This document shows, in pieces, positions 3,101-22,356 of a stretch of DNA of 64,000 nt. Within the stretch, counting starts at the first letter, position 1. Every line of letters begins with the position of its first letter. Source of the stretch: a virus. A model generated the notes under the pieces. That model searched no databases. It was not told where the DNA came from and saw only the letters and a program-made list of their open reading frames with translations. Position numbers and translations under genes: made by a program. The stretch is taken from IMG/VR virus record IMGVR_UViG_3300009182_000043, positions 19,392 through 83,391 of that record; one strand, written 5' to 3'.

Positions 3101-6100
3101 ATTGATAAACTTTAGAAGTATCTGTGTCTAACCACATATCCCCTAATTTAGCATTGGTTGGTGCAGTTGCTTGTGTTGCAAAGGTAGTAACTACTTTTCC
3201 GTCACGTGTAAGATTATTACCTACACTTAAATTACTTGTAATTTCAACTGAATTTGATGTCTTGTCAAACAATACTGTAGATGTTTTTAATGTTCCGCCA
3301 TCGTTATACAATATTGCTTTGTTAGCACCAGCAACTAATATATCTCCAGAAAAACTACCAGACATATGTGTAGCAATGAAACTTGATGCTGTTACACTTC
3401 CAGTAACCACCAAGTTTCCACCAATTGACTCATCTCCAAGTACATCTAAACTAACTAGTGATCCAACACTAGTAATATTTGGCTGTGCATTGGTTGAGAC
3501 TGTGTTAGCAACAGTAGCCTGTGTTGCTAAATCAGAAGTGTCTGAATGACCAGCATTATCAGCATATACGGCATTTGCTACTTTACCTAAAACATTTCCG
3601 CCTGTAATATTTGATATATTACTACCGTCACCCGCTAGATAATCGGCTGATAGTAATTCACCAACAGTTAAATTCACTGCAATTGAAGCAGAATCATTTA
3701 CTATCAAACTTACTAAAGTGCCTACACTAGTAATATTTGGTTGACTACTTGCAGTTACATGCAATGCATAATTAGCAACGTTAGCTTGCGCCGTATTGTC
3801 AGCAAACACAGCATTTGCTACTTTATCTGTAACGTTTGGACCATAAATATTATATAAACCTGATGCTTCACCTGCAACATTACCTACAGTTAACATATTG
3901 TTAACTATACCGCTATTAGCAGTGAACGTATCTAGCGTAGTAGGTCCATTAACGTTTAAGAAGTTTAATATACCAATTTCGTTAATGTTTGGTTGAATGT
4001 TATCGTGAACCACATTAGCAATATAAGCACTGTCTGCTGTTAAACTTGATCCTGCAAAATTTGCATAATTTGCATTTGCTACATCACCTTGTATGTTAGC
4101 ACCGGAGATGTTTCCAATTTGATAACCGTCACCAACTAAGTAAATACCGGTGATTGTGTCACTAGCAGAAATATTAGAAACGCTTATGTTTCCTGATACT
4201 GTTAAATCAGTTAATGTGCCGACACTAGTAATATTTGGTTGATAATTGGTAGTAACTGTTCCGGCACGTAATGCAGTGTTTGAAATGTTTGCAAAGTTTG
4301 CAGTATTTGCTTGTTTGGCTAAATTAACGTTACCAACAACATTAGCACCTTGAATGTTTGCGAGATATGTAGCATTACCTGAAAAGAAATTAGCAATTGC
4401 TATATTACCTAATACGGCATTTCCAGCAGTTAAATTACCTGAAACATTTAATAAGGTAAGCAACCCAACAGCAGTAATGTTTGGTTGATCTCCAATTACG
4501 ACATTACCAGCATAGTTGGCATAGTTGGCATTTTCAGCACTATCAGAGAAAATTGCATTAGCTACTTTTCCAGTAATATTTGAACCAGTAACACTAGTTA
4601 AATTGCTTCCATCACCAATAAAATAATTACCACGGATTTCGTCCCCAAGGTTTGCGCTACCAGAAGTTATTACTCCAGAAATTGTTAAACTTGTTAGTGT
4701 ACCAACACTAGTGATATTTGATTGAGCACCTTGAGTTACATAGCCTGCTAAACCTGCATTGTCAGAAAAGATTGCATTTGCGACTTTACCAGTAACATTT
4801 GCTCCGGTTATATTACTTAAATTGCCACCCTCACCAATAATATGAGTGGCAATAATATGGTCACCTAGACTTGCGTTTTGTGATGTAATTGGTCCATCAA
4901 CTGTTAAACTGGTCAATGTACCCAAACTAGTAATGTTTGATTGATCGGCTGCTGTTACATGTCCTGCTAATAAACTTGTTCCTGCACTAACAGAATAAGT
5001 AGCATTTGATACTTCACCTATTACGTTTCCACCAGTAATTCCAAATAATCTGTAACCATTACCAACAAAGAAATTAGCGGTTACTACATTACCAAGACTT
5101 GGGTTAACTGTAGGACTTACTGCTAAACTAGTTAGTGTTCCAAAGCTTCTAATATTTGGCTGTGCTGAATCATTAACTGTATTTGCAACTCCTGCGATAC
5201 CTGCACTATTTGCATAAACTGCATTCGATACAAAGCCAGTAACATTTGCACCAGTAACATTTGATAGTCTACTACCGTCACCAATAAAATAACTAGCATG
5301 TAAATTGCCGTATTCATGTATAATTAAATTGTTTGCAACTAAACTTACATTACTTGCAACAGAAAATTCTTGATTTGTATCATCCCAACCAACAAACGCA
5401 TCAACTGCATTATTTGTGAAATAATGCATTACTGTACCGCGAGCATTATAATCATCTGCTTGAGTTAGTACACCACCTGTTGGGTTTGCACCTAATTGAA
5501 GAATTGGATCTTCAATACGTATTGTTTGAACATCTGCATAAATTGCATTACCTTCAACAATAAGATTACCAACAATAGTAGCATCACCTCCAACAATTAG
5601 TGATGAGTTAGCAATTAATGCACCGGTAACTGTTAGATTTGCTAAATTACCAACTTGATTAATGTTTGGTTGATAATTACCAATAACAGTAGTTGACGTA
5701 TTAGATTGGGTACTGTTTAATGTAACCAGTGCATAGTGTGCATAGTTAGCATTTGCGACTTCGCCAAATACATTTGCCCCTGCAATATAAGATATTCCTG
5801 CACCGTTACCAGCAAATGATGTTGCATTAAGTTGACCAGTAACATTGTTATATGTTAGTGTAGCATCACCACTAAATGCACCATTATTATTAAACTGAAT
5901 GGATTGATTGCTGCCGCCGGGTGTTGTTAGTGCCGCATCTTTAAAGAATAGTGTTCCAAACCCATCAGTAGCAACTACTTGGTCAGGATTTCCACCTTGA
6001 ATACTAATGTTACTAATACTACCAAGATTTGCAAAGTTACTAACTTCTAGGGAGTTGGCTATTATATTACCATTGCTGTCAACAACTGCTATTGTGGGTT

Positions 6101-15291: not shown

Positions 15292-17808
15292 TTAAGCCGC
15301 CATGTATGTTTTTATATCGTTATGAATAATATTGCTTCGTTCAACATTTAATATCAACTCATCAAATTGATTGTTTATAAACGATAATAAACTTAAATCA
15401 ATACCATCATCTTGTTGTTGTATTGGAGTTGTCATAGGTGCAGGTGGTGGTGTTTCGCTACCCTGCATCATAGAGTCTATATCTATGGGAATTCCCCCGT
15501 CACGCAATGCTATTAATGCTTCACGTCCATGCATCTCAATCATATTTGACCCGTTAACTAATCCACCTTGTTTAAGTTGTTGTAGATGCTCTGGGTCATG
15601 TATAGGTCTTTTTAGTCCAAATTTCTTTAAAAATCCATTTTTATCTAAGTATTCTGCTTGAGTTTTATTAACATCAACTGCTCGACCGGTATTATGCGGG
15701 CCTAATCCCTTTTTAGGATCCATAGGAGTTGTAATTTTACCAAATTTACTATCGTATACAGTAGGATTATTTGGTCCACCGTTGTTTCTTACCCAAGCAT
15801 CGTATAATTCTTGTTGTTCTTCAACTGTACGAAAAGACGAATTTAATTCTAATTTTTCTTTTGTAGCGTTGTAATACTCTTGTGCCATTAAAGTTATGCG
15901 TTGTGACAATTCTTTATTTTTACTTGCTAACATGTTAAAATGGTCAAGATCACCGGATCTGCTAGTAAATTTAATGTATTTTGATGCTTCGCTGATATCT
16001 ACAGTAGAGGTACGATTTCTAATTTCAAGATTAAGCTGTTGCTGTTCTGCCTTTTTTTCTCTATATTCTTGACCCTCTAATCCAGTACCTTGTTTTCTTA
16101 CCCTAGCTTCTTTATTCATTAATTGCTGTCTTTTTTCAACAAGATCCGAATAAGAATCTTTACCTAATAATGTTTGTTTTACATTTTTTTCTTCTTGTAA
16201 TCTGGTTTTGGCAGCCTTTATTGTTGCTTGTACTACAGGATCATTTGGTGTAGTTTTGTTTACCTTTTCAAGTATTTCAATGTCTTTTTCTTGTTTTGTA
16301 ATTCTTTCTTGAATTCTTTCTACTGTTCTAATTTTTAATCCTACTTGTTTTAATTCAAGAGAAATATCATCGTGTTTTTTCTTTAACTGATTTTTGTCAC
16401 CCAACATTATTTGAACTTCTTCAAATGCATTTTTAAGTTCACCGCCGGATATCCAAGCACCAGATGCTGCCGCATAGTAAGCAACAGACCTCACTACACC
16501 TATTAAGAATTTAAATACGGTTGATGCTATTCCAGCAAAACTTTCTACAAGTTTATTTTTCAATTGCCCAGCAGTTCTTTCAGTATCTAGTCTAGTATCT
16601 TCTGTTTTCTTAAGGTCATCATCTTTTGCAGCCATATTTTTAATTAATTCTTCGACTTCCTTTTCACTCTTTGCAGATAGTATTTGATCCGTTCTTTCTA
16701 ATACTTTGCCACTAATACCAGTTTGTTTTGCATATTCATCACTAATTATCAAATTCTTTTTTTGATTTTGCATAAACTCTTGATAATATTTTAAAATCAT
16801 TTTCGTACCTTCAGCTCCAGAAATTCTGCCGGTTTTTACACCTTCTGCAATTTCACGTGCTTTACCACGGGTAACGTACATCATTGCATTACCTTCATCA
16901 GTAGTAGCCTGACCATTTGCTAAGAAGTCACTAAATCCTTTTGCAATGTCAGCACTAACAGTACCCAACGTTACCATTGCTTTATCCATTTCTTTAGCTT
17001 CTTTTTCATTACCGTTTCTTATCATCAATGTTTTTTGCATTTGATAAGTTGCATCAAGTCTTAAATCTGCTAGTCTTTTGGCAGTTTGGTCTCTTGTTTC
17101 CCCAGTCATAGATGTTAATACTGTCAATGATTTTGCATATTCTAATGTAGCTTTTTTAATTTTTATATCATCGTTTTCCATTGGTGCAGTATAACCAGTC
17201 AAATACTTTATTGCTTCACTTTGTATTTCTAGCATTCTATCTGGATTAACACCTAAACGTAAAAATTCAAGTTGAGTATCATGTGTTGAAAAGATTTTAC
17301 CTAAACGTTTTGCCGCAGTTGATGTATCAGGACCTAAATTTCTTAATGCCGGTCCAATATTAACAATAGAATCACCTAATTTACCGATATTTTCAATGTA
17401 TCTACCGGCTTCTGTTCCTATGTTTTCAAAATCAACAGTGGTTAATTTAGCAGTTGCCCCGATAGATTCTAATCCATCATATGCATTATTAAGAGCATCA
17501 ACTTGTTTTAAATAAGCATTGGTTGCACTTTCTACACCCTTAATAAAAAGAGTAATTGCCATTCCTGTTTTTGAACTAGTACCAGAAACATGTGTAAGTG
17601 CATTTGATGTTGATGTAATTAACCCTGCCCATTTACTAGTATCAGTACTAGTATCTCTTATAGCCGAAAAGGCAGACTTTGATATATTTGCTATATCTTT
17701 GAATGCTGTTACTAATTTTTTTAGTGAGCTAGCGGATGTTTTGGTACTACTAGTTATATCACCGGCAGCAGTACCTAATTGACTAATTTCTCTATCAATA
17801 TTAGACAT
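15292..17808 (-). CDS. Tape-measure-like protein with a C-terminal M15 (VanY-like) zinc peptidase
   Basis: Helical body; motifs SSFRTVEEQQELY, HNTGRAVD and DPEH. Confidence 0.65.
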   Translation of the reverse strand: MSNIDREISQLGTAAGDITSSTKTSASSLKKLVTAFKDIANISKSAFSAIRDTSTDTSKWAGLITSTSNALTHVSGTSSKTGMAITLFIKGVESATNAYLKQVDALNNAYDGLESIGATAKLTTVDFENIGTEAGRYIENIGKLGDSIVNIGPALRNLGPDTSTAAKRLGKIFSTHDTQLEFLRLGVNPDRMLEIQSEAIKYLTGYTAPMENDDIKIKKATLEYAKSLTVLTSMTGETRDQTAKRLADLRLDATYQMQKTLMIRNGNEKEAKEMDKAMVTLGTVSADIAKGFSDFLANGQATTDEGNAMMYVTRGKAREIAEGVKTGRISGAEGTKMILKYYQEFMQNQKKNLIISDEYAKQTGISGKVLERTDQILSAKSEKEVEELIKNMAAKDDDLKKTEDTRLDTERTAGQLKNKLVESFAGIASTVFKFLIGVVRSVAYYAAASGAWISGGELKNAFEEVQIMLGDKNQLKKKHDDISLELKQVGLKIRTVERIQERITKQEKDIEILEKVNKTTPNDPVVQATIKAAKTRLQEEKNVKQTLLGKDSYSDLVEKRQQLMNKEARVRKQGTGLEGQEYREKKAEQQQLNLEIRNRTSTVDISEASKYIKFTSRSGDLDHFNMLASKNKELSQRITLMAQEYYNATKEKLELNSSFRTVEEQQELYDAWVRNNGGPNNPTVYDSKFGKITTPMDPKKGLGPHNTGRAVDVNKTQAEYLDKNGFLKKFGLKRPIHDPEHLQQLKQGGLVNGSNMIEMHGREALIALRDGGIPIDIDSMMQGSETPPPAPMTTPIQQQDDGIDLSLLSFINNQFDELILNVERSNIIHNDIKTYMAA

Positions 17809-17810
17809 TG

Positions 17811-20144
17811 TTATCCCTTAACACTTTGTAACATATCTTTTTGCAATCCATTGTTTTCTTTCATCACACTTAATAAAATATTAAGTTTATTTGAAATTGA
17901 TTCAAGTGCAATACCAGCCATCTTACTGTTAGATGTACCTGGTGCTGAAGTGCTAGTAGGATCAACGTTTGTTTTTTTCAAGTTCTGTATATATGAATCC
18001 ATTAATGAATTAACACCTGATGAATTAGATAATAAACTATTTCTGTTATTAGACATGAAAGAAACTGGAATAGAATCGCCATTTGGTAACGGAACCACTG
18101 CATAATCTTTATTACCAGGCATAACAGTTTTATATCCAGAATCTGGTCCTTGTAAAACCCCACCGGAAGAAAACGTTTTATTAATTTTACCACCTTGACG
18201 CATTTTCATAACAGGTTTAGTATCTGCTGTTGGAAGTTGCGGATTAGGAACACTACTATCTGAAGGAGTTGCATCTACTTGAGGTGTATTTGCATTTGTT
18301 TGTGCAGATTTATTGTCACTGACAGTTGCTGTAGTAGTTGTAGCTTTAGTTTTAGAATTTTCTTCTTTTTGTTCTTGTTGTTTTTTAAGACTTTCGTCAA
18401 CTTTTTTATAATTTTCACCATCACGTATTCTTCTAGCTTTATCAATTGCCATTAACTGTTTGTTAACTTCATTTAATTCTTTTTCTGCATATCCTTCCAT
18501 AGAACCAGTATCACCTGATGTTGGGTCTTTAATTGCATTTGCATCTTCTTCTCTAGCTTTAGCAACTGCTTGTTGTTTTTTTTCTAGCTCTGTGGTTAAT
18601 TCTTTTTGTTGTTTAATTAAATCTTCGGTTGAATCAAACAAATAAGGTAATTCAGGTGGCATGTCTACCCAATCACCAAATTTCTTCATAAACCCTTTCA
18701 TCAATACTTGCAAACCTTTCATTAAAGCTTGGAATCCAGTTGTCACTGGTCCTTGTATCAATTCAATGAAAGAATCAAATGCTGTTGAAAGTGCGGCGCT
18801 TGCATTATTGCTTGTATTTTGAATGTCTTTATTGGAATCAACACGATTTTTTGCTTCCTCAAGTTCTTTTTGTTTAGCTTCAAGCGATCCTTCAGCTACA
18901 TTTTTATTAAGATTAGCCACTCGTTCTGCTGACATGTTCATTCTTGCCGCTAATTCAGGATTAGCTTTAAGAGAAGTAGCCATTTGCATTAATGTTTTAT
19001 TACCACTTTCATTTAATTTGTTTATTAAACCTTCACCAGTTAATTTACCACTCTTAAAATCTTGCATCCAATTAGTAAATTGACCTTGAGTTTCACCCAA
19101 CATTGATACGACTGACTGAGACATTTTTTGAGGACTTGACAATGCGTCCATAAATGCTTGAGCCGCAGTACCACTGACATTACTACGCATCATCTGCGCC
19201 ATTGATAGGTACATATCTGCTTGTTTTTTACCTGCTTCAGTTGTACTCAATTCACGTAATGTTATATTAAACGCAAAATTTTCTAAATCTTTTTTTCTAT
19301 TTTGTGAAATAGTTTCTGTTGTCTCACCCGTCAATGCGGCAAGTGATGCCAACGTAGTAACATACTTCAATGATTCGTCACTTAATTGCTTAGGTTCTTT
19401 AGCTCGGGATTGATTTAACATCCCTTGTTGTTTTACATAATCAGCTTGATACTTTGTTAATTTTTCTTGACTTATACCAATCGTATTAAATTGATTACGT
19501 ATAAGATTTTGTTCTTCTTTGGATTTAGTTGCAAAACTTGCTATTTCGGCAAATTTTTTCATACCCTCGCCAGACGTATTACCCAATGACATTAAACTTG
19601 GTCCAAGGTCACTAATAATCTTTACAAGTTTTAATGATTCTCCGTTAACTGGTAAATAATTAGCATCCTTTGCTAAATCACCAAGTGTCTTAGTAGTAAA
19701 TTGTGCGGCTCCACCTAGTTCTGCTAGTTGGTCAAATCCTTTATTAAGATTGTCTACTCTACCAAATACACTGTCAACAGTACTAGTAAAGAGTTTTGTA
19801 AATGCTCCTAATACTGCGCCCACTGGGCCCAATGACATCAACAATGTACCTAAACCATTTCCAGCAGTGTTAAGCGCATTGCCGTATTTGGATAATCCAT
19901 CTTGTCCAGATGTTAATGCTCTTGAAAATTGAATAGCCCCGGAACCTAATTCATTTAGACCCCTAGCAGCCATGTCTAATGTTTGACCTGCTTCTCTAGT
20001 ACTAAGTGATAAATCTGAAGTAGCTGAACCTAAACGACCTGCTTCACGTGACCAAGCATCATTTAACGAACCGGCAACGGATGCCATTCGTGCATTTTGC
20101 TCGTCAATAAGCCTTTGTGTTTCTTGGGCAGAATTATTATCCAT
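17811..20144 (-). CDS. Tape-measure-like protein, paralogue of 15292..17808
   Basis: Helical, A/S/K/Q-rich; LASLAALTGET matches LTVLTSMTGET in the paralogue; similar C-terminal VPLPNGDSIP / IALRDGGIP. Confidence 0.6.
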   Translation of the reverse strand: MDNNSAQETQRLIDEQNARMASVAGSLNDAWSREAGRLGSATSDLSLSTREAGQTLDMAARGLNELGSGAIQFSRALTSGQDGLSKYGNALNTAGNGLGTLLMSLGPVGAVLGAFTKLFTSTVDSVFGRVDNLNKGFDQLAELGGAAQFTTKTLGDLAKDANYLPVNGESLKLVKIISDLGPSLMSLGNTSGEGMKKFAEIASFATKSKEEQNLIRNQFNTIGISQEKLTKYQADYVKQQGMLNQSRAKEPKQLSDESLKYVTTLASLAALTGETTETISQNRKKDLENFAFNITLRELSTTEAGKKQADMYLSMAQMMRSNVSGTAAQAFMDALSSPQKMSQSVVSMLGETQGQFTNWMQDFKSGKLTGEGLINKLNESGNKTLMQMATSLKANPELAARMNMSAERVANLNKNVAEGSLEAKQKELEEAKNRVDSNKDIQNTSNNASAALSTAFDSFIELIQGPVTTGFQALMKGLQVLMKGFMKKFGDWVDMPPELPYLFDSTEDLIKQQKELTTELEKKQQAVAKAREEDANAIKDPTSGDTGSMEGYAEKELNEVNKQLMAIDKARRIRDGENYKKVDESLKKQQEQKEENSKTKATTTTATVSDNKSAQTNANTPQVDATPSDSSVPNPQLPTADTKPVMKMRQGGKINKTFSSGGVLQGPDSGYKTVMPGNKDYAVVPLPNGDSIPVSFMSNNRNSLLSNSSGVNSLMDSYIQNLKKTNVDPTSTSAPGTSNSKMAGIALESISNKLNILLSVMKENNGLQKDMLQSVKG

Positions 20145-20181: not shown

Positions 20182-20211
20182 TGTATAAAAACTACCATTT
20201 TAGGAGAAATA

Positions 20212-21042
20212 ATGAGTATTGAAAACAACCCGTTAAAGCAGTATTTCCGCCGCCCAAGTATCTATTTAAAGTTACCTAGCGGGGGATTAGGGTATGAGTT
20301 TGGTGTTATTGACATGCCCGAAACAAAAGAATTACCAGTGTATCCAATGACAGCAATTGATGAGATTACTAGCAAAACCCCAGACGCATTGTATAACGGA
20401 TCCGCTGTTACAGATATTATTAAAAGCTGTGTACCCGCGATAAAAGAGCCATGGAAAATAACCACAGTTGACTTAGATGCTATTTTAGTTGCAATACGTA
20501 TTGCAACCAATGGTAGCGAAATGGATATGGAAACTACATGCCCTAGTTGCAGTGAGGAAAGCAAATATGGAGTTAATCTAAGTATTGTATTGAATAGTTT
20601 CAAAGCAGGGGACTACGAATCAGGATTGACTCTCAATGATTTAAAAATTAAATTTAAACCATTAAATTATAAATCATTGTCTCAAAGTAGTGTGAGACAA
20701 TTTGAAATTCAAAAAGCTATTATGTCAATTGACAGAATGGAAGATGGTCCTGATCGTGAAGCTAAATCAATGGATCTGTTAAAAGTTATAACCGATTCTA
20801 CGTTAGATGTATTAGTCAACACGATTGATTATATTGCTACACCCGACGCAATTGTAAATGACCGTATTTTCATCGTTGAGTTTTTGCAAAACACAGACAA
20901 AAAGACATTTGAAACTATTAAAGACTATAGTGTCAATTTACGTGAAAGCACACAAACTAAACCCCTACAAATCAAATGCATACATTGTTCACATGAGTAT
21001 GAACAATTATTTACATTGAACGTAAGCGATTTTTTCGCTTAA
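20212..21042 (+). CDS. Baseplate hub assembly / tail chaperone protein (T4 gp26-like)
   Basis: LKLPS, PMTAIDE, DLDAILVAIRIAT, two CxxC pairs and a C-terminal DFF; AGGAG RBS. Confidence 0.75.
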   Translation: MSIENNPLKQYFRRPSIYLKLPSGGLGYEFGVIDMPETKELPVYPMTAIDEITSKTPDALYNGSAVTDIIKSCVPAIKEPWKITTVDLDAILVAIRIATNGSEMDMETTCPSCSEESKYGVNLSIVLNSFKAGDYESGLTLNDLKIKFKPLNYKSLSQSSVRQFEIQKAIMSIDRMEDGPDREAKSMDLLKVITDSTLDVLVNTIDYIATPDAIVNDRIFIVEFLQNTDKKTFETIKDYSVNLRESTQTKPLQIKCIHCSHEYEQLFTLNVSDFFA

Positions 21043-21079
21043 GGCTTCTATACCTCGATCCCGAGGGTATGGGTAAGCT
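21030..21079 (+). promoter_or_regulatory. Putative -1 programmed ribosomal frameshift signal: T TTT TTC plus a hairpin
   Basis: In-frame XXXYYYZ heptamer at 21030-21036; 7-nt spacer; stem 21044-21078; the -1 frame is open into 21069..21266. Confidence 0.6.
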
Positions 21080-21266
21080 GTTTGATGGAATGGAACGGGA
21101 GACTAAAGCTATTAAAAAGAACTCCGCAAGAATAGCTTGGTATATGCGTGGGGCGTTGACCTATGAGGATGTACTAAATCTTAGTCCAGACGAATTAAAA
21201 TCAGTTAATGAAATCATTGAAGAAAACTTAGAGACTACTAAGAAAACACAGATGCCGTTCTTCTAA
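21069..21266 (+). CDS. gp51-like small baseplate assembly protein, possibly the frameshift extension of the gp26-like ORF
   Basis: WYMRGALTYEDVLNLSPDE; directly follows the gp26-like gene in the -1 frame. Confidence 0.65.
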   Translation: MGKLFDGMERETKAIKKNSARIAWYMRGALTYEDVLNLSPDELKSVNEIIEENLETTKKTQMPFF

Positions 21267-21320
21267 TCCATGGAATGTCATTTGATAATCTTAGGGTTAG
21301 TATTGTGTTCATTCATTGGG

Positions 21321-21785
21321 AGATGAACTGCGTTCATCTAAGTACTCGCTATCGCTCGTCCTTATTTGTTTTACGGTCTTTTAGTTTAATTAATTGTAAT
21401 TTGTTTATTTGTATTAAGGACTATATTGCCGCTTAGAAAGCCATGGTAGTGCTATTCAGCACTACCAATGGTAAAGGTATGTTTGCCATGCCCGTCGTCC
21501 ATAGTCATCTATTCCCCGAATAATCGACTCTTTTTTGTCACTATTCGCCACCGGTTGCTCTGTAGGGTTTACTGGGTCTGTAGTTGAAGCTATTAGGTTC
21601 TGCCTAATTCTTCAGCAACGCATGTTACATATTCGCAAGATAAAGTAAAATATGTACTCATTGAAGGTTCGCTTTGACGAGAGCCTTCTCGGTGTTCCAT
21701 GTTATTGCTAACATGCATACTCCAGAATCCAACGGCACAGCACAATCTGTACAGTCTCAAGGAGGACTTGCAACCAAGCCTACGA
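21321..21785 (-). ncRNA. Candidate large structured non-coding RNA (or structured ssDNA element) of unknown family
   Basis: 523-bp gap with no ORF in the track; at least seven hairpins plus nested long-range helices; a GCAA tetraloop and several G-U pairs favour the minus strand. Confidence 0.55.
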
Positions 21786-21789
21786 ATTT

Positions 21790-22356
21790 TTAAATATTAA
21801 TAGTAAGTGTGGACTTTGTGTCTGTATTTTCAATTGACTTTGTGTCTGCTGAATATGTTTGTACTAATTTGGTATTGTGTTTAAAGAATAAATCGAATTC
21901 CATGAGGTACCAATCACCAAACTTTTCGCTTCCGTAAAAGAAAAAATTATCGGTGATCCATGTTAGCTTGCATTGCACAGCAACATAACGACCCTTACGA
22001 TTAAACTTCATAAACAGAATGTTTAAATCGTCTGGATCGGCTACATCAAGTAGTTGTTCTAACCAAGAATCCAATATTTTGTGTTCACCTGATAATAACA
22101 AGTGAAAAGGAAAATCAGCGTAAAACTTGCATTCTACGTTCATCTTCGGAAAGCTTTGTCCGGGCACAATATCACCCTTAAAGCTACGAATCTGACCTTC
22201 ATGTAGAATCTGTGTTCTAGATTGATTCTTGCCACCAACGTAAGCACCGGAACCAGGGGCACGAATAAAGCTTTCACTATATTTTTCGCTTAGATATTTT
22301 GCGATTTCTCGCTCAAACCCTGATCCTTTGTTCTTACTCGGTGATGGCATAGACAT
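21790..22356 (-). CDS. Holliday-junction-resolvase-like PD-(D/E)xK nuclease
   Basis: SKNKGSGFEREIA, GDI and VECKFY; start probably at MSMPSP (22356), after GATAAGTA. Confidence 0.75.
   Translation of the reverse strand: MSMPSPSKNKGSGFEREIAKYLSEKYSESFIRAPGSGAYVGGKNQSRTQILHEGQIRSFKGDIVPGQSFPKMNVECKFYADFPFHLLLSGEHKILDSWLEQLLDVADPDDLNILFMKFNRKGRYVAVQCKLTWITDNFFFYGSEKFGDWYLMEFDLFFKHNTKLVQTYSADTKSIENTDTKSTLTINI

Follow-up and report, generated by a model that had tools for sequence, protein, structure and literature searches.

Xu, Hendrix and Duda reportedly described, in 2004, a -1 frameshift that is conserved in the tail assembly chaperone genes of long-tailed phages, among them the G/GT genes of phage lambda and also E/E+E' of P2. 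For T4 itself two other proteins, gp26 and gp51, appear as 'hub assembly chaperones' in Table 2 of Leiman et al. 2010 (PMC3004832). T4 requires both to assemble its baseplate hub, and the finished particle does not contain gp51; the literature on hub assembly has been called contradictory and the roles of gp26 and gp51 have been unclear for decades (PMC3004832). Here we analyze a stretch of 64,000 nucleotides (nt) of the IMG/VR record IMGVR_UViG_3300009182_000043, referred to below as the window. The record, a fragment of 83 kb, comes from an uncultured, giant freshwater phage related to T4. A comparison with relatives indicates that its gene of the gp26/gp51 family (Pfam family PF12322, positions 20212-21042) very probably carries a programmed -1 ribosomal frameshift site, from which a short form of 276 amino acids (aa) and a long form of 351 aa would be made.

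The 3' end of the gene, an open reading frame (ORF) on the + strand, reads AGC GAT TTT TTC GCT TAA. The slippery heptamer T_TTT_TTC is therefore in the 0 frame (21030-21036), as the first-pass annotation had stated, and a single sense codon (GCT) separates it from the 0-frame stop. Translated in the -1 frame from position 21036 (CGC), the sequence begins R L R L L Y L D P E G M G K L F and meets no stop until TAA at 21264-21266. That this frame leads without interruption into the ORF 21069..21266, the ATG of which is buried in a hairpin, had likewise been noted earlier and is borne out by the sequence: the frame is open through ATG 21069 and adds 76 residues after the slip, such that the predicted long form consists of residues 1-275 followed by 76 residues from the -1 frame. 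The arrangement is singular within the window. Its 40 ORFs of at least 100 aa contain 137 in-frame heptamers of the form X_XXY_YYZ, and the one in the PF12322 gene alone leads into a -1 frame that stays open for at least 40 residues after the stop. The elements of the locus are as follows:

20184..20191, + strand: candidate late promoter of the PF12322 gene, TATAAAAA, read from the sequence, with one mismatch to TATAAATA, which we take to be the consensus of the T4 late-promoter box.
20202..20206, + strand: Shine-Dalgarno sequence AGGAG, 5 nt 5' of the ATG, read from the sequence.
20212..21042, + strand: 0-frame gene for the 276-aa short form, a PF12322 baseplate-hub assembly protein (Pfam, PHROG and AlphaFold2 model).
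21030..21036, + strand: slippery heptamer T_TTT_TTC (X_XXY_YYZ, 0 frame), from the sequence and its conservation in relatives.
21036..21266, + strand: predicted -1 extension of 76 codons plus TAA, a helical domain of about 75 aa (conservation, fused clade and alignment with the gp51 tail).
21037..21042, + strand: 6-nt spacer, GCT (the final sense codon of the 0 frame) plus the stop TAA, of constant length in the alignment.
21043..21079, + strand: putative stimulatory stem-loop with paired arms 21043-21056 and 21064-21079, a bulge of 2 nt and a loop of 7 nt (comparative consensus).
21069..21071, + strand: ATG within the stem's 3' arm, which relatives do not conserve as a start codon.

We have compared how the homologous gene ends in about 170 loci, including those of the phages 121Q, Atu_ph07, Paride and SCTP-2, and the heptamer was kept in all but four of them. 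One set of 90 loci was made up of the window, 86 IMG/VR contigs and three phage records; TTTTTTC was found in frame in 88 of them, the other two being in-frame fusions. Out of 80 metagenome loci, 78 had the heptamer, one was a fusion and one carried C_TTT_TTC. The heptamer is present too in SCTP-2, Vibrio phage 2.275.O, the 595-kb record LR756511 and, as T_TTT_TTT, in CM1. The locus with the deviating heptamer (L139 577-1598, on a 3.5-kb contig) is the sole one to read AGC TTT TTC; the site may be weakened there, or the difference may be a polymorphism or an error in the reads.

The conservation extends to the nucleotide level. Among 149 distinct heptamer-bearing genes the sequence is TTTTTTC in 148 and TTTTTTT in one. 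The first Phe codon of the heptamer is TTT in all 149 (68% elsewhere in the same genes) and the second is TTC in 148 (32% elsewhere). The codon 5' of the heptamer is one of nine, for nine different amino acids (D, S, N, A, H, T, L, Y, G), and it always ends on T; by comparison, Asp is encoded by GAT in 69% of the cases elsewhere in the same genes. T4 gp26 retains the two Phe residues, encoded by TTC TTT, which is not slippery.

The second conserved element is the stem-loop. In its own fold the window pairs 21047-21057 with 21062-21073, plus outer pairs, and it forms 12 of the 14 pairs of the comparative consensus stem when counted on the alignment. The hairpin of the first-pass annotation (21044-21078 after a 7-nt spacer) is present in the window's fold; the consensus stem spans 21043-21079 after 6 nt. 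Single-sequence folds of 72 distinct sites gave the same hairpin, starting 6 nt past the heptamer. On an alignment of 69 distinct sites 80% of the stem cells were paired, versus 36-54% when the 3' partner was slid by one to three columns. Compensatory changes on both sides were seen in 9 of the 14 pairs, for instance 17 CG against 16 UA at one pair and 23 UA against 18 CG at another. Not one of 500 shuffles reached the observed values for paired cells, for cells with changes in both partners or for the covariation score, and the measures that count pairs and pair types were reached by 1 and 3 of 500 shuffles. A strong codon bias is found in the stem arms, where Leu is encoded by CTN in 95% of the cases (43% elsewhere) and Lys by AAG in 92% (26% elsewhere). 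A freshwater clade of higher guanine-cytosine content (L132-L183) has a different, long-range stem (GCCUCCU...AGGAGGC) with the same 6-nt onset and within the first 75 nt. The loci of this clade have four 0-frame codons after the heptamer, not one, and their stem arms resemble anti-Shine-Dalgarno and Shine-Dalgarno sequences.

The same 351-aa fusion would also be obtained if RNA polymerase added an extra U on the T6 run, so that some of the mRNAs encode both parts in one frame. Such transcriptional slippage would agree with the strict conservation of the homopolymer run, and CM1 even has a run of seven T. In bacteria and phages, however, a polymerase usually slips efficiently on runs of about 8-9 bases, and the run is only 6 bases here. 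Moreover, the register that is conserved is that of the ribosomal signal X_XXY_YYZ, in which the T before the first Phe codon is invariant although it occupies a wobble position. The conserved and covarying stem 6 nt downstream is at the classic place of a ribosomal stimulator, and it fades in the clade that has no heptamer (see below). We consider slippage by the polymerase very unlikely; the slip would take place on the ribosome itself.

The -1 frame encodes a conserved peptide of 73-82 aa in the relatives. Its conservation begins with the first codon 3' of the heptamer and is described by FFR[LIVM][RK]LL..PE...WYMRGG.SY.DILNMS..ER...NLETTKK..PFF. In the last 0-frame codon the variable bases fit a hydrophobic -1 codon (L/I/V/M), and no 0-frame residue is conserved. 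This pattern bears on the view that two separate proteins are made, in which the downstream ORF of 65-75 aa is translated alone, from ATG 21069 or by termination-reinitiation, and no fusion is formed. The ATG has a GAGG just upstream, loci with a TGA stop have ATGA and 121Q has TAATG, and the small coding sequence (CDS) is annotated apart in GenBank for 121Q, CBB, SCTP-2, the Vibrio phage and WPEC3. Yet the peptide is conserved 5' of every candidate start, from the heptamer on. No ATG, GTG or TTG is conserved in the -1 frame, and most relatives have none at or before the position of ATG 21069; the first one is found only at extension codon 38 in many relatives and is lacking altogether in Paride, where the ORF is unannotated. 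In the window the GAGG is only 3 nt from the ATG, which itself lies within the stem. Separate translation would furthermore leave the conservation of the heptamer at the nucleotide level unexplained, and six natural proteins have both parts fused in frame. The two-protein view is therefore highly improbable.

The fused proteins provide another view of the long form. The IMG/VR contigs L008 and L009, which stem from different samples, have no heptamer and carry both parts in one frame (...NYCEYFRVRLLYMQPEE...). Among 5.8 billion proteins searched, six of this kind (P0002-P0007) were retrieved; they measure 342-355 aa, are 64-100% identical and have an invariant junction, and all other relatives in that search were about 275 aa long. 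A scan of genome contigs gave no relative of the fused clade. The fused long protein equals the predicted frameshift product minus one Phe and belongs to the same family and genomic context. The clade shows the fused protein to be a natural product and, as judged from these comparisons, a functional one. One further locus (L103), a distant in-frame fusion according to a tblastn table, was rejected as such and is a normal frameshift-type locus.

In the contigs of the fused clade the short form is encoded by a second gene. We have examined the tandem short paralogue in the L008/L009 and L121 contigs, the fused proteins of L008 and L121 being 64% identical. In both L008 and L121 another PF12322 gene, of 272 aa, lies in tandem behind the fused one and ends exactly at the end of the short form; in L008 this paralogue is preceded by an exact TATAAATA box. 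The count of PF12322 genes is one each in 121Q, Atu_ph07 and Paride, and two in T4 and in the fused-clade contig. The former stem region of the fused loci folds with -5.6 and -8.3 kcal/mol, versus -14.3 +/- 3.5 in the frameshift loci. Compared with the window, this clade has thus lost the heptamer, has a weak stem region and obtains the short form from a second gene, which is a T4-like, two-gene solution. In a maximum-likelihood tree the fused-long clade (100/100) and the short-paralogue clade (100/100) are situated inside the frameshift-type genes and are not each other's sisters, and the clade of T4 gp26 and gp51 (98/98) is separate from both. Since they nest within the frameshift-type genes, the two-gene state of the jumbo-phage group is, on this tree, derived from the predicted frameshift state, independently of T4. 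Both forms would seem to be needed, since the lineages that lost the slip site keep a separate short gene. The short paralogues (L008 4042-4893, L121 3529-4347) group with the genes of L104 and L110 (98/94) and not with their own fused neighbour, which suggests that they were acquired by recombination rather than by simple local duplication.

That the site is a true 351-aa in-frame gene split by a 1-nt homopolymer indel can be dismissed: homopolymers are error-prone and the in-frame version does occur in nature, but the identical TTTTTTC split is found in about 170 loci from many samples, studies, cultured phages and different groups, the fused clade differs by substitutions (TAT TTT CGG) and not by one extra T, and the T6 run is no assembly error because a contig from an independent DNA run matches 20730-21076, across the site, without difference.

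Several observations weigh against programmed frameshifting on the ribosome, and in part against the stem or the evolutionary order. First, the sequence data fit both ribosomal slippage and slippage of RNA polymerase on the T6 run. Second, where the stop codon is TGA it overlaps an ATG (ATGA), and termination-reinitiation could thus add a separate small protein at these loci. Third, the window's hairpin alone is not more stable than its shuffles (z = -0.8); its significance derives from conservation and not from the stability of the window's own fold. RNAalifold predicted no consensus structure on the 69-site alignment, and for that reason the stem was specified by us from the single-sequence folds and tested by pair counts; its support thus depends on a structure specified by the analyst. 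In the inner stem about one third of the cells are unpaired at fixed register. The only RNA contig that was found (run X7) spans 20749-20962 and stops short of the heptamer, and with that coverage it is silent on the slip site. Finally, the tree is midpoint-rooted and T4 gp26 is on a long branch, so that a direction of change can be read from it inside the jumbo-phage clade only. Programmed frameshifting nevertheless accounts for the conserved heptamer, spacer, stem and -1 peptide together with the natural in-frame fusions. The first-pass annotation had asked for conservation of the heptamer, the hairpin and the -1 frame relation among homologues, and all three were found conserved in the relatives.

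The family assignment of the gene is firm. The 276-aa protein matches PF12322 (T4_baseplate) with an E-value of 9.7e-20 and 71.6 bits, the gathering cut-off being 24.5, as well as PHROG 150 ('baseplate hub'), and a PF12322 match was obtained for all 64 relatives that were scanned with Pfam. The nearest cultured relatives are jumbo myoviruses with only 26-32% identity, namely Atu_ph07, Phosso, the 121Q/PBECO4/K64-1 group, Paride/MIJ3 (Wroclawvirus), CBB, GAP32, SCTP-2 and Vibrio phage 2.275.O. AlphaFold2 modelled the short form of the window with a predicted local distance difference test score (pLDDT) of 88, and the fused L008 protein with a pLDDT of 92.9 and a predicted template modelling (TM) score of 0.87; in the latter model the extension forms four helices (residues 270-345). 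Two CxxC pairs are located on two beta-hairpins and are kept in at least 90% of the relatives, which suggests a four-Cys, zinc-ribbon-like zinc site. A Foldseek search of BFVD returned gp26/gp51-type proteins only, the best being 'baseplate hub assembly protein, T4-like' (E-value 5e-21, TM scores 0.69/0.84). The same search of the PDB gave no match at an E-value of 0.001 or lower, a profile search of the PDB sequences gave nothing relevant, and the extension by itself had only weak and inconsistent matches in Pfam and PHROGs.

Both T4 proteins belong to the same family as the window protein. PF12322 matches gp26 over residues 1-206 (E-value 9e-64) and gp51 over residues 1-201 (E-value 4e-52). 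The 208 residues of gp26 terminate two residues past the conserved FF, the Phe at which the short form of the window also ends, and gp51 (249 aa) runs 48 residues further. In a profile-profile comparison with hhalign the jumbo-phage family (fused, short and extension rows) aligned to 22 gp51 proteins with a probability of 95% and an E-value of 3e-8, collinear to the C-terminus. The extension against the gp51 tail alone gave a P-value of 6e-5 over 27 columns (RGG.SY.DILNMSP.ER..I..IIE / K..Y...SIM.MIP.ER.IALSLVEKD), with a score of 26.0 versus 10.4 +/- 2.3 for 300 column-shuffled tails (maximum 19.6). The link becomes visible in such profile-profile comparison only, and it is distant, since PF28602, the family of the gp51-type long form, is not listed for the fused proteins in the precomputed lists. 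Because the C-terminal helical tail of gp51 aligns with the -1 extension, the predicted short product corresponds to T4 gp26 and the predicted long product to T4 gp51. The labels gp26-like and gp51-like of the first-pass annotation are therefore right in substance for the two products; the notion of ORF 21069..21266 as a separate gp51-like ORF has to be given up, as it is a start-less extension that on its own matches T4 gp51 with a BLASTP E-value of 1.

Nevertheless, the two systems differ in several respects. T4 has two paralogous genes, adjacent and divergent (gene 25 follows gene 26), and no slippery site, whereas in the window phage both forms would come from one gene. The window proteins have about 70 more residues, located at the N-terminus and in the middle, and the extension exceeds the gp51 tail by about 25 residues. 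Gene 26 also yields an internal-start product, 26', that has no counterpart in the window gene; in the T4 sequence (L004 2803-3090) it is annotated as the C-terminal 95 aa of gene 26, and T4 thus also makes nested products in the PF12322 family, by a different route. In the case of CBB, the gp26-like protein does not appear in that part of the virion mass-spectrometry list that we could cover.

In the mechanism that we propose, the ribosome would hold UUU-UUC (Phe274-Phe275) in the P and A sites at the moment that the stem-loop, 6 nt downstream, is at the mRNA entrance. A fraction of the ribosomes would then slip back by one base, both tRNA-Phe re-pairing on UUU-UUU as the stem resists unwinding. 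These ribosomes would continue with CGC (Arg), bypass the 0-frame stop and add the 76 residues of the small helical domain, and the ribosomes that do not slip would terminate one codon later to give the 276-aa form, the first 275 residues being common to both. Presumably a minority slips, by which the long form would be a minor, catalytic-type species, like gp51 and lambda GT. Both forms may act in the assembly of the hub and the tail.

The resemblance to lambda G/GT lies in the two products and their signal. As read from the sequence signals and the comparison, the window gene has a predicted -1 slip near its 3' end, short and long proteins with a common N-terminus, a small extra domain on the long form and a signal of the form X_XXY_YYZ; by analogy, the products would in both cases be assembly factors rather than major virion parts. 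The two-form logic of G/GT thus fits, given the support for the frameshift together with the correspondence to gp26 and gp51, and to this extent the G/GT-type system of the first-pass annotation stands. Pfam scans of the 64 relatives with E-values up to 10 contained no tail-assembly-chaperone (TAC) family, and the structural matches were weak. With VIA-align, YqbN (3klu) scored Z 4.5 (root-mean-square deviation 8.3) for the first model and Z 6.1 (5.9, 88 residues aligned) for the second, and the HK97 chaperone (2ob9) scored Z 4.4, all of which are below the level that is meaningful for the tool. The other matches were mostly generic helical ones, and 3klu and 2ob9 were the only two on the N-terminal ~100 residues. 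Homology of the PF12322 proteins to the G/GT-type chaperones is, on these models, a lead and not a finding.

Other differences concern the setting and the function. The first-pass annotation had placed the pair beside two tape-measure-like genes, in a G/GT-like neighbourhood. The chaperone gene of lambda is co-oriented between the tube and tape-measure genes, however, whereas the window gene is transcribed divergently from its neighbours and is not located between such genes. The T4 relatives of the window protein act in hub assembly, and lambda G is not known to have the four-Cys zinc-ribbon-like site. One may speculate that the PF12322 proteins (T4 gp26 and gp51 plus the frameshifted genes) are the T4-type counterpart, and possibly distant homologues, of G/GT. 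The short/long pair would then be universally required in the assembly of long-tailed phages, T4 26/51 would be a frameshift pair resolved by duplication and the transition between frameshift and duplication would have occurred at least two times. We put this forward as a tentative and rather doubtful proposal.

A further parallel is provided by dnaX of E. coli, where tau and gamma are produced by means of a -1 site (A_AAA_AAG) and a downstream hairpin. It shares with the window gene the heptamer, the short spacer, the downstream stem-loop and the two nested products of one gene. The slip on dnaX leads to early termination and a shorter product, whereas it would lengthen the window protein, and an upstream Shine-Dalgarno-like element contributes in dnaX. 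Other lineages reach the two dnaX products by another route, such as transcriptional slippage in Thermus.

The kind of element, a -1 frameshift in a tail-assembly chaperone gene, is known. As far as searched, the frameshift in the gp26/gp51 family and the view of T4 26/51 as a resolved frameshift pair are not known from earlier work. A joined CDS at the site is annotated in none of nine GenBank records (121Q, Atu_ph07, CBB, SCTP-2, the Vibrio phage, WPEC3, Paride, CM1 and LR756511): the extension is a separate 'hypothetical protein' in the first six and is unannotated in the last three. A full-text literature search on gp26/gp51, the baseplate hub and tail assembly chaperones yielded no description of the site, and the papers on PA5oct and CBB do not mention a frameshift. 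Recognition of the site would correct the annotation of a core gene in jumbo phages that are studied for therapy and biocontrol, namely the 121Q/PBECO4/RaK2 group, the PA5oct/Paride group, Atu_ph07 and CBB. If gp26 and gp51 go back to one ancestral protein, as its short and long forms, and relatives produce both from a single gene by frameshifting, a testable model for T4 hub assembly follows, in which the long form is minor and of catalytic type like in lambda G/GT. With respect to the evolution of recoding, a single family appears to reach the same two products via recoding or via gene duplication, and the stimulatory RNA appears to decay after the loss of the slip site.

The genes upstream of the PF12322 gene are on the - strand and include a portal gene of T4 type and two paralogues that encode proteins of 838 and 777 aa. 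The PF12322 gene on the + strand diverges from all of these; it is followed by a gene for a PDDEXK nuclease, and further downstream by gp46/47-like SbcCD genes and a late sigma factor. The proteins of 838 and 777 aa (window 15292-20144, - strand) are paralogues with 22% identity over 468 aa (BLASTP E-value 8e-16), and the former has a VanY/M15-type peptidase domain that is not present in the latter. BLASTP of the 777-aa protein against the T4 tape measure gp29 gave no match. The homologue in phage CBB, CBB_251, is an abundant protein of the virion. Finally, a near-perfect inverted repeat (CCATGGTAGTGCT ... AGCACTACCAATGG) is situated at window positions 21430-21480, 3' of the extension, where transcription converges. 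Rfam had no match in window 20900-21900, the repeat included. The 5' part and flank of the repeat (GCCGCTT.GAAGCCATGGTAGTGCTATT) recur in L008 at 5066-5100, after the short paralogue. A bidirectional terminator is one possible reading of the repeat, a conserved RNA or DNA element another.

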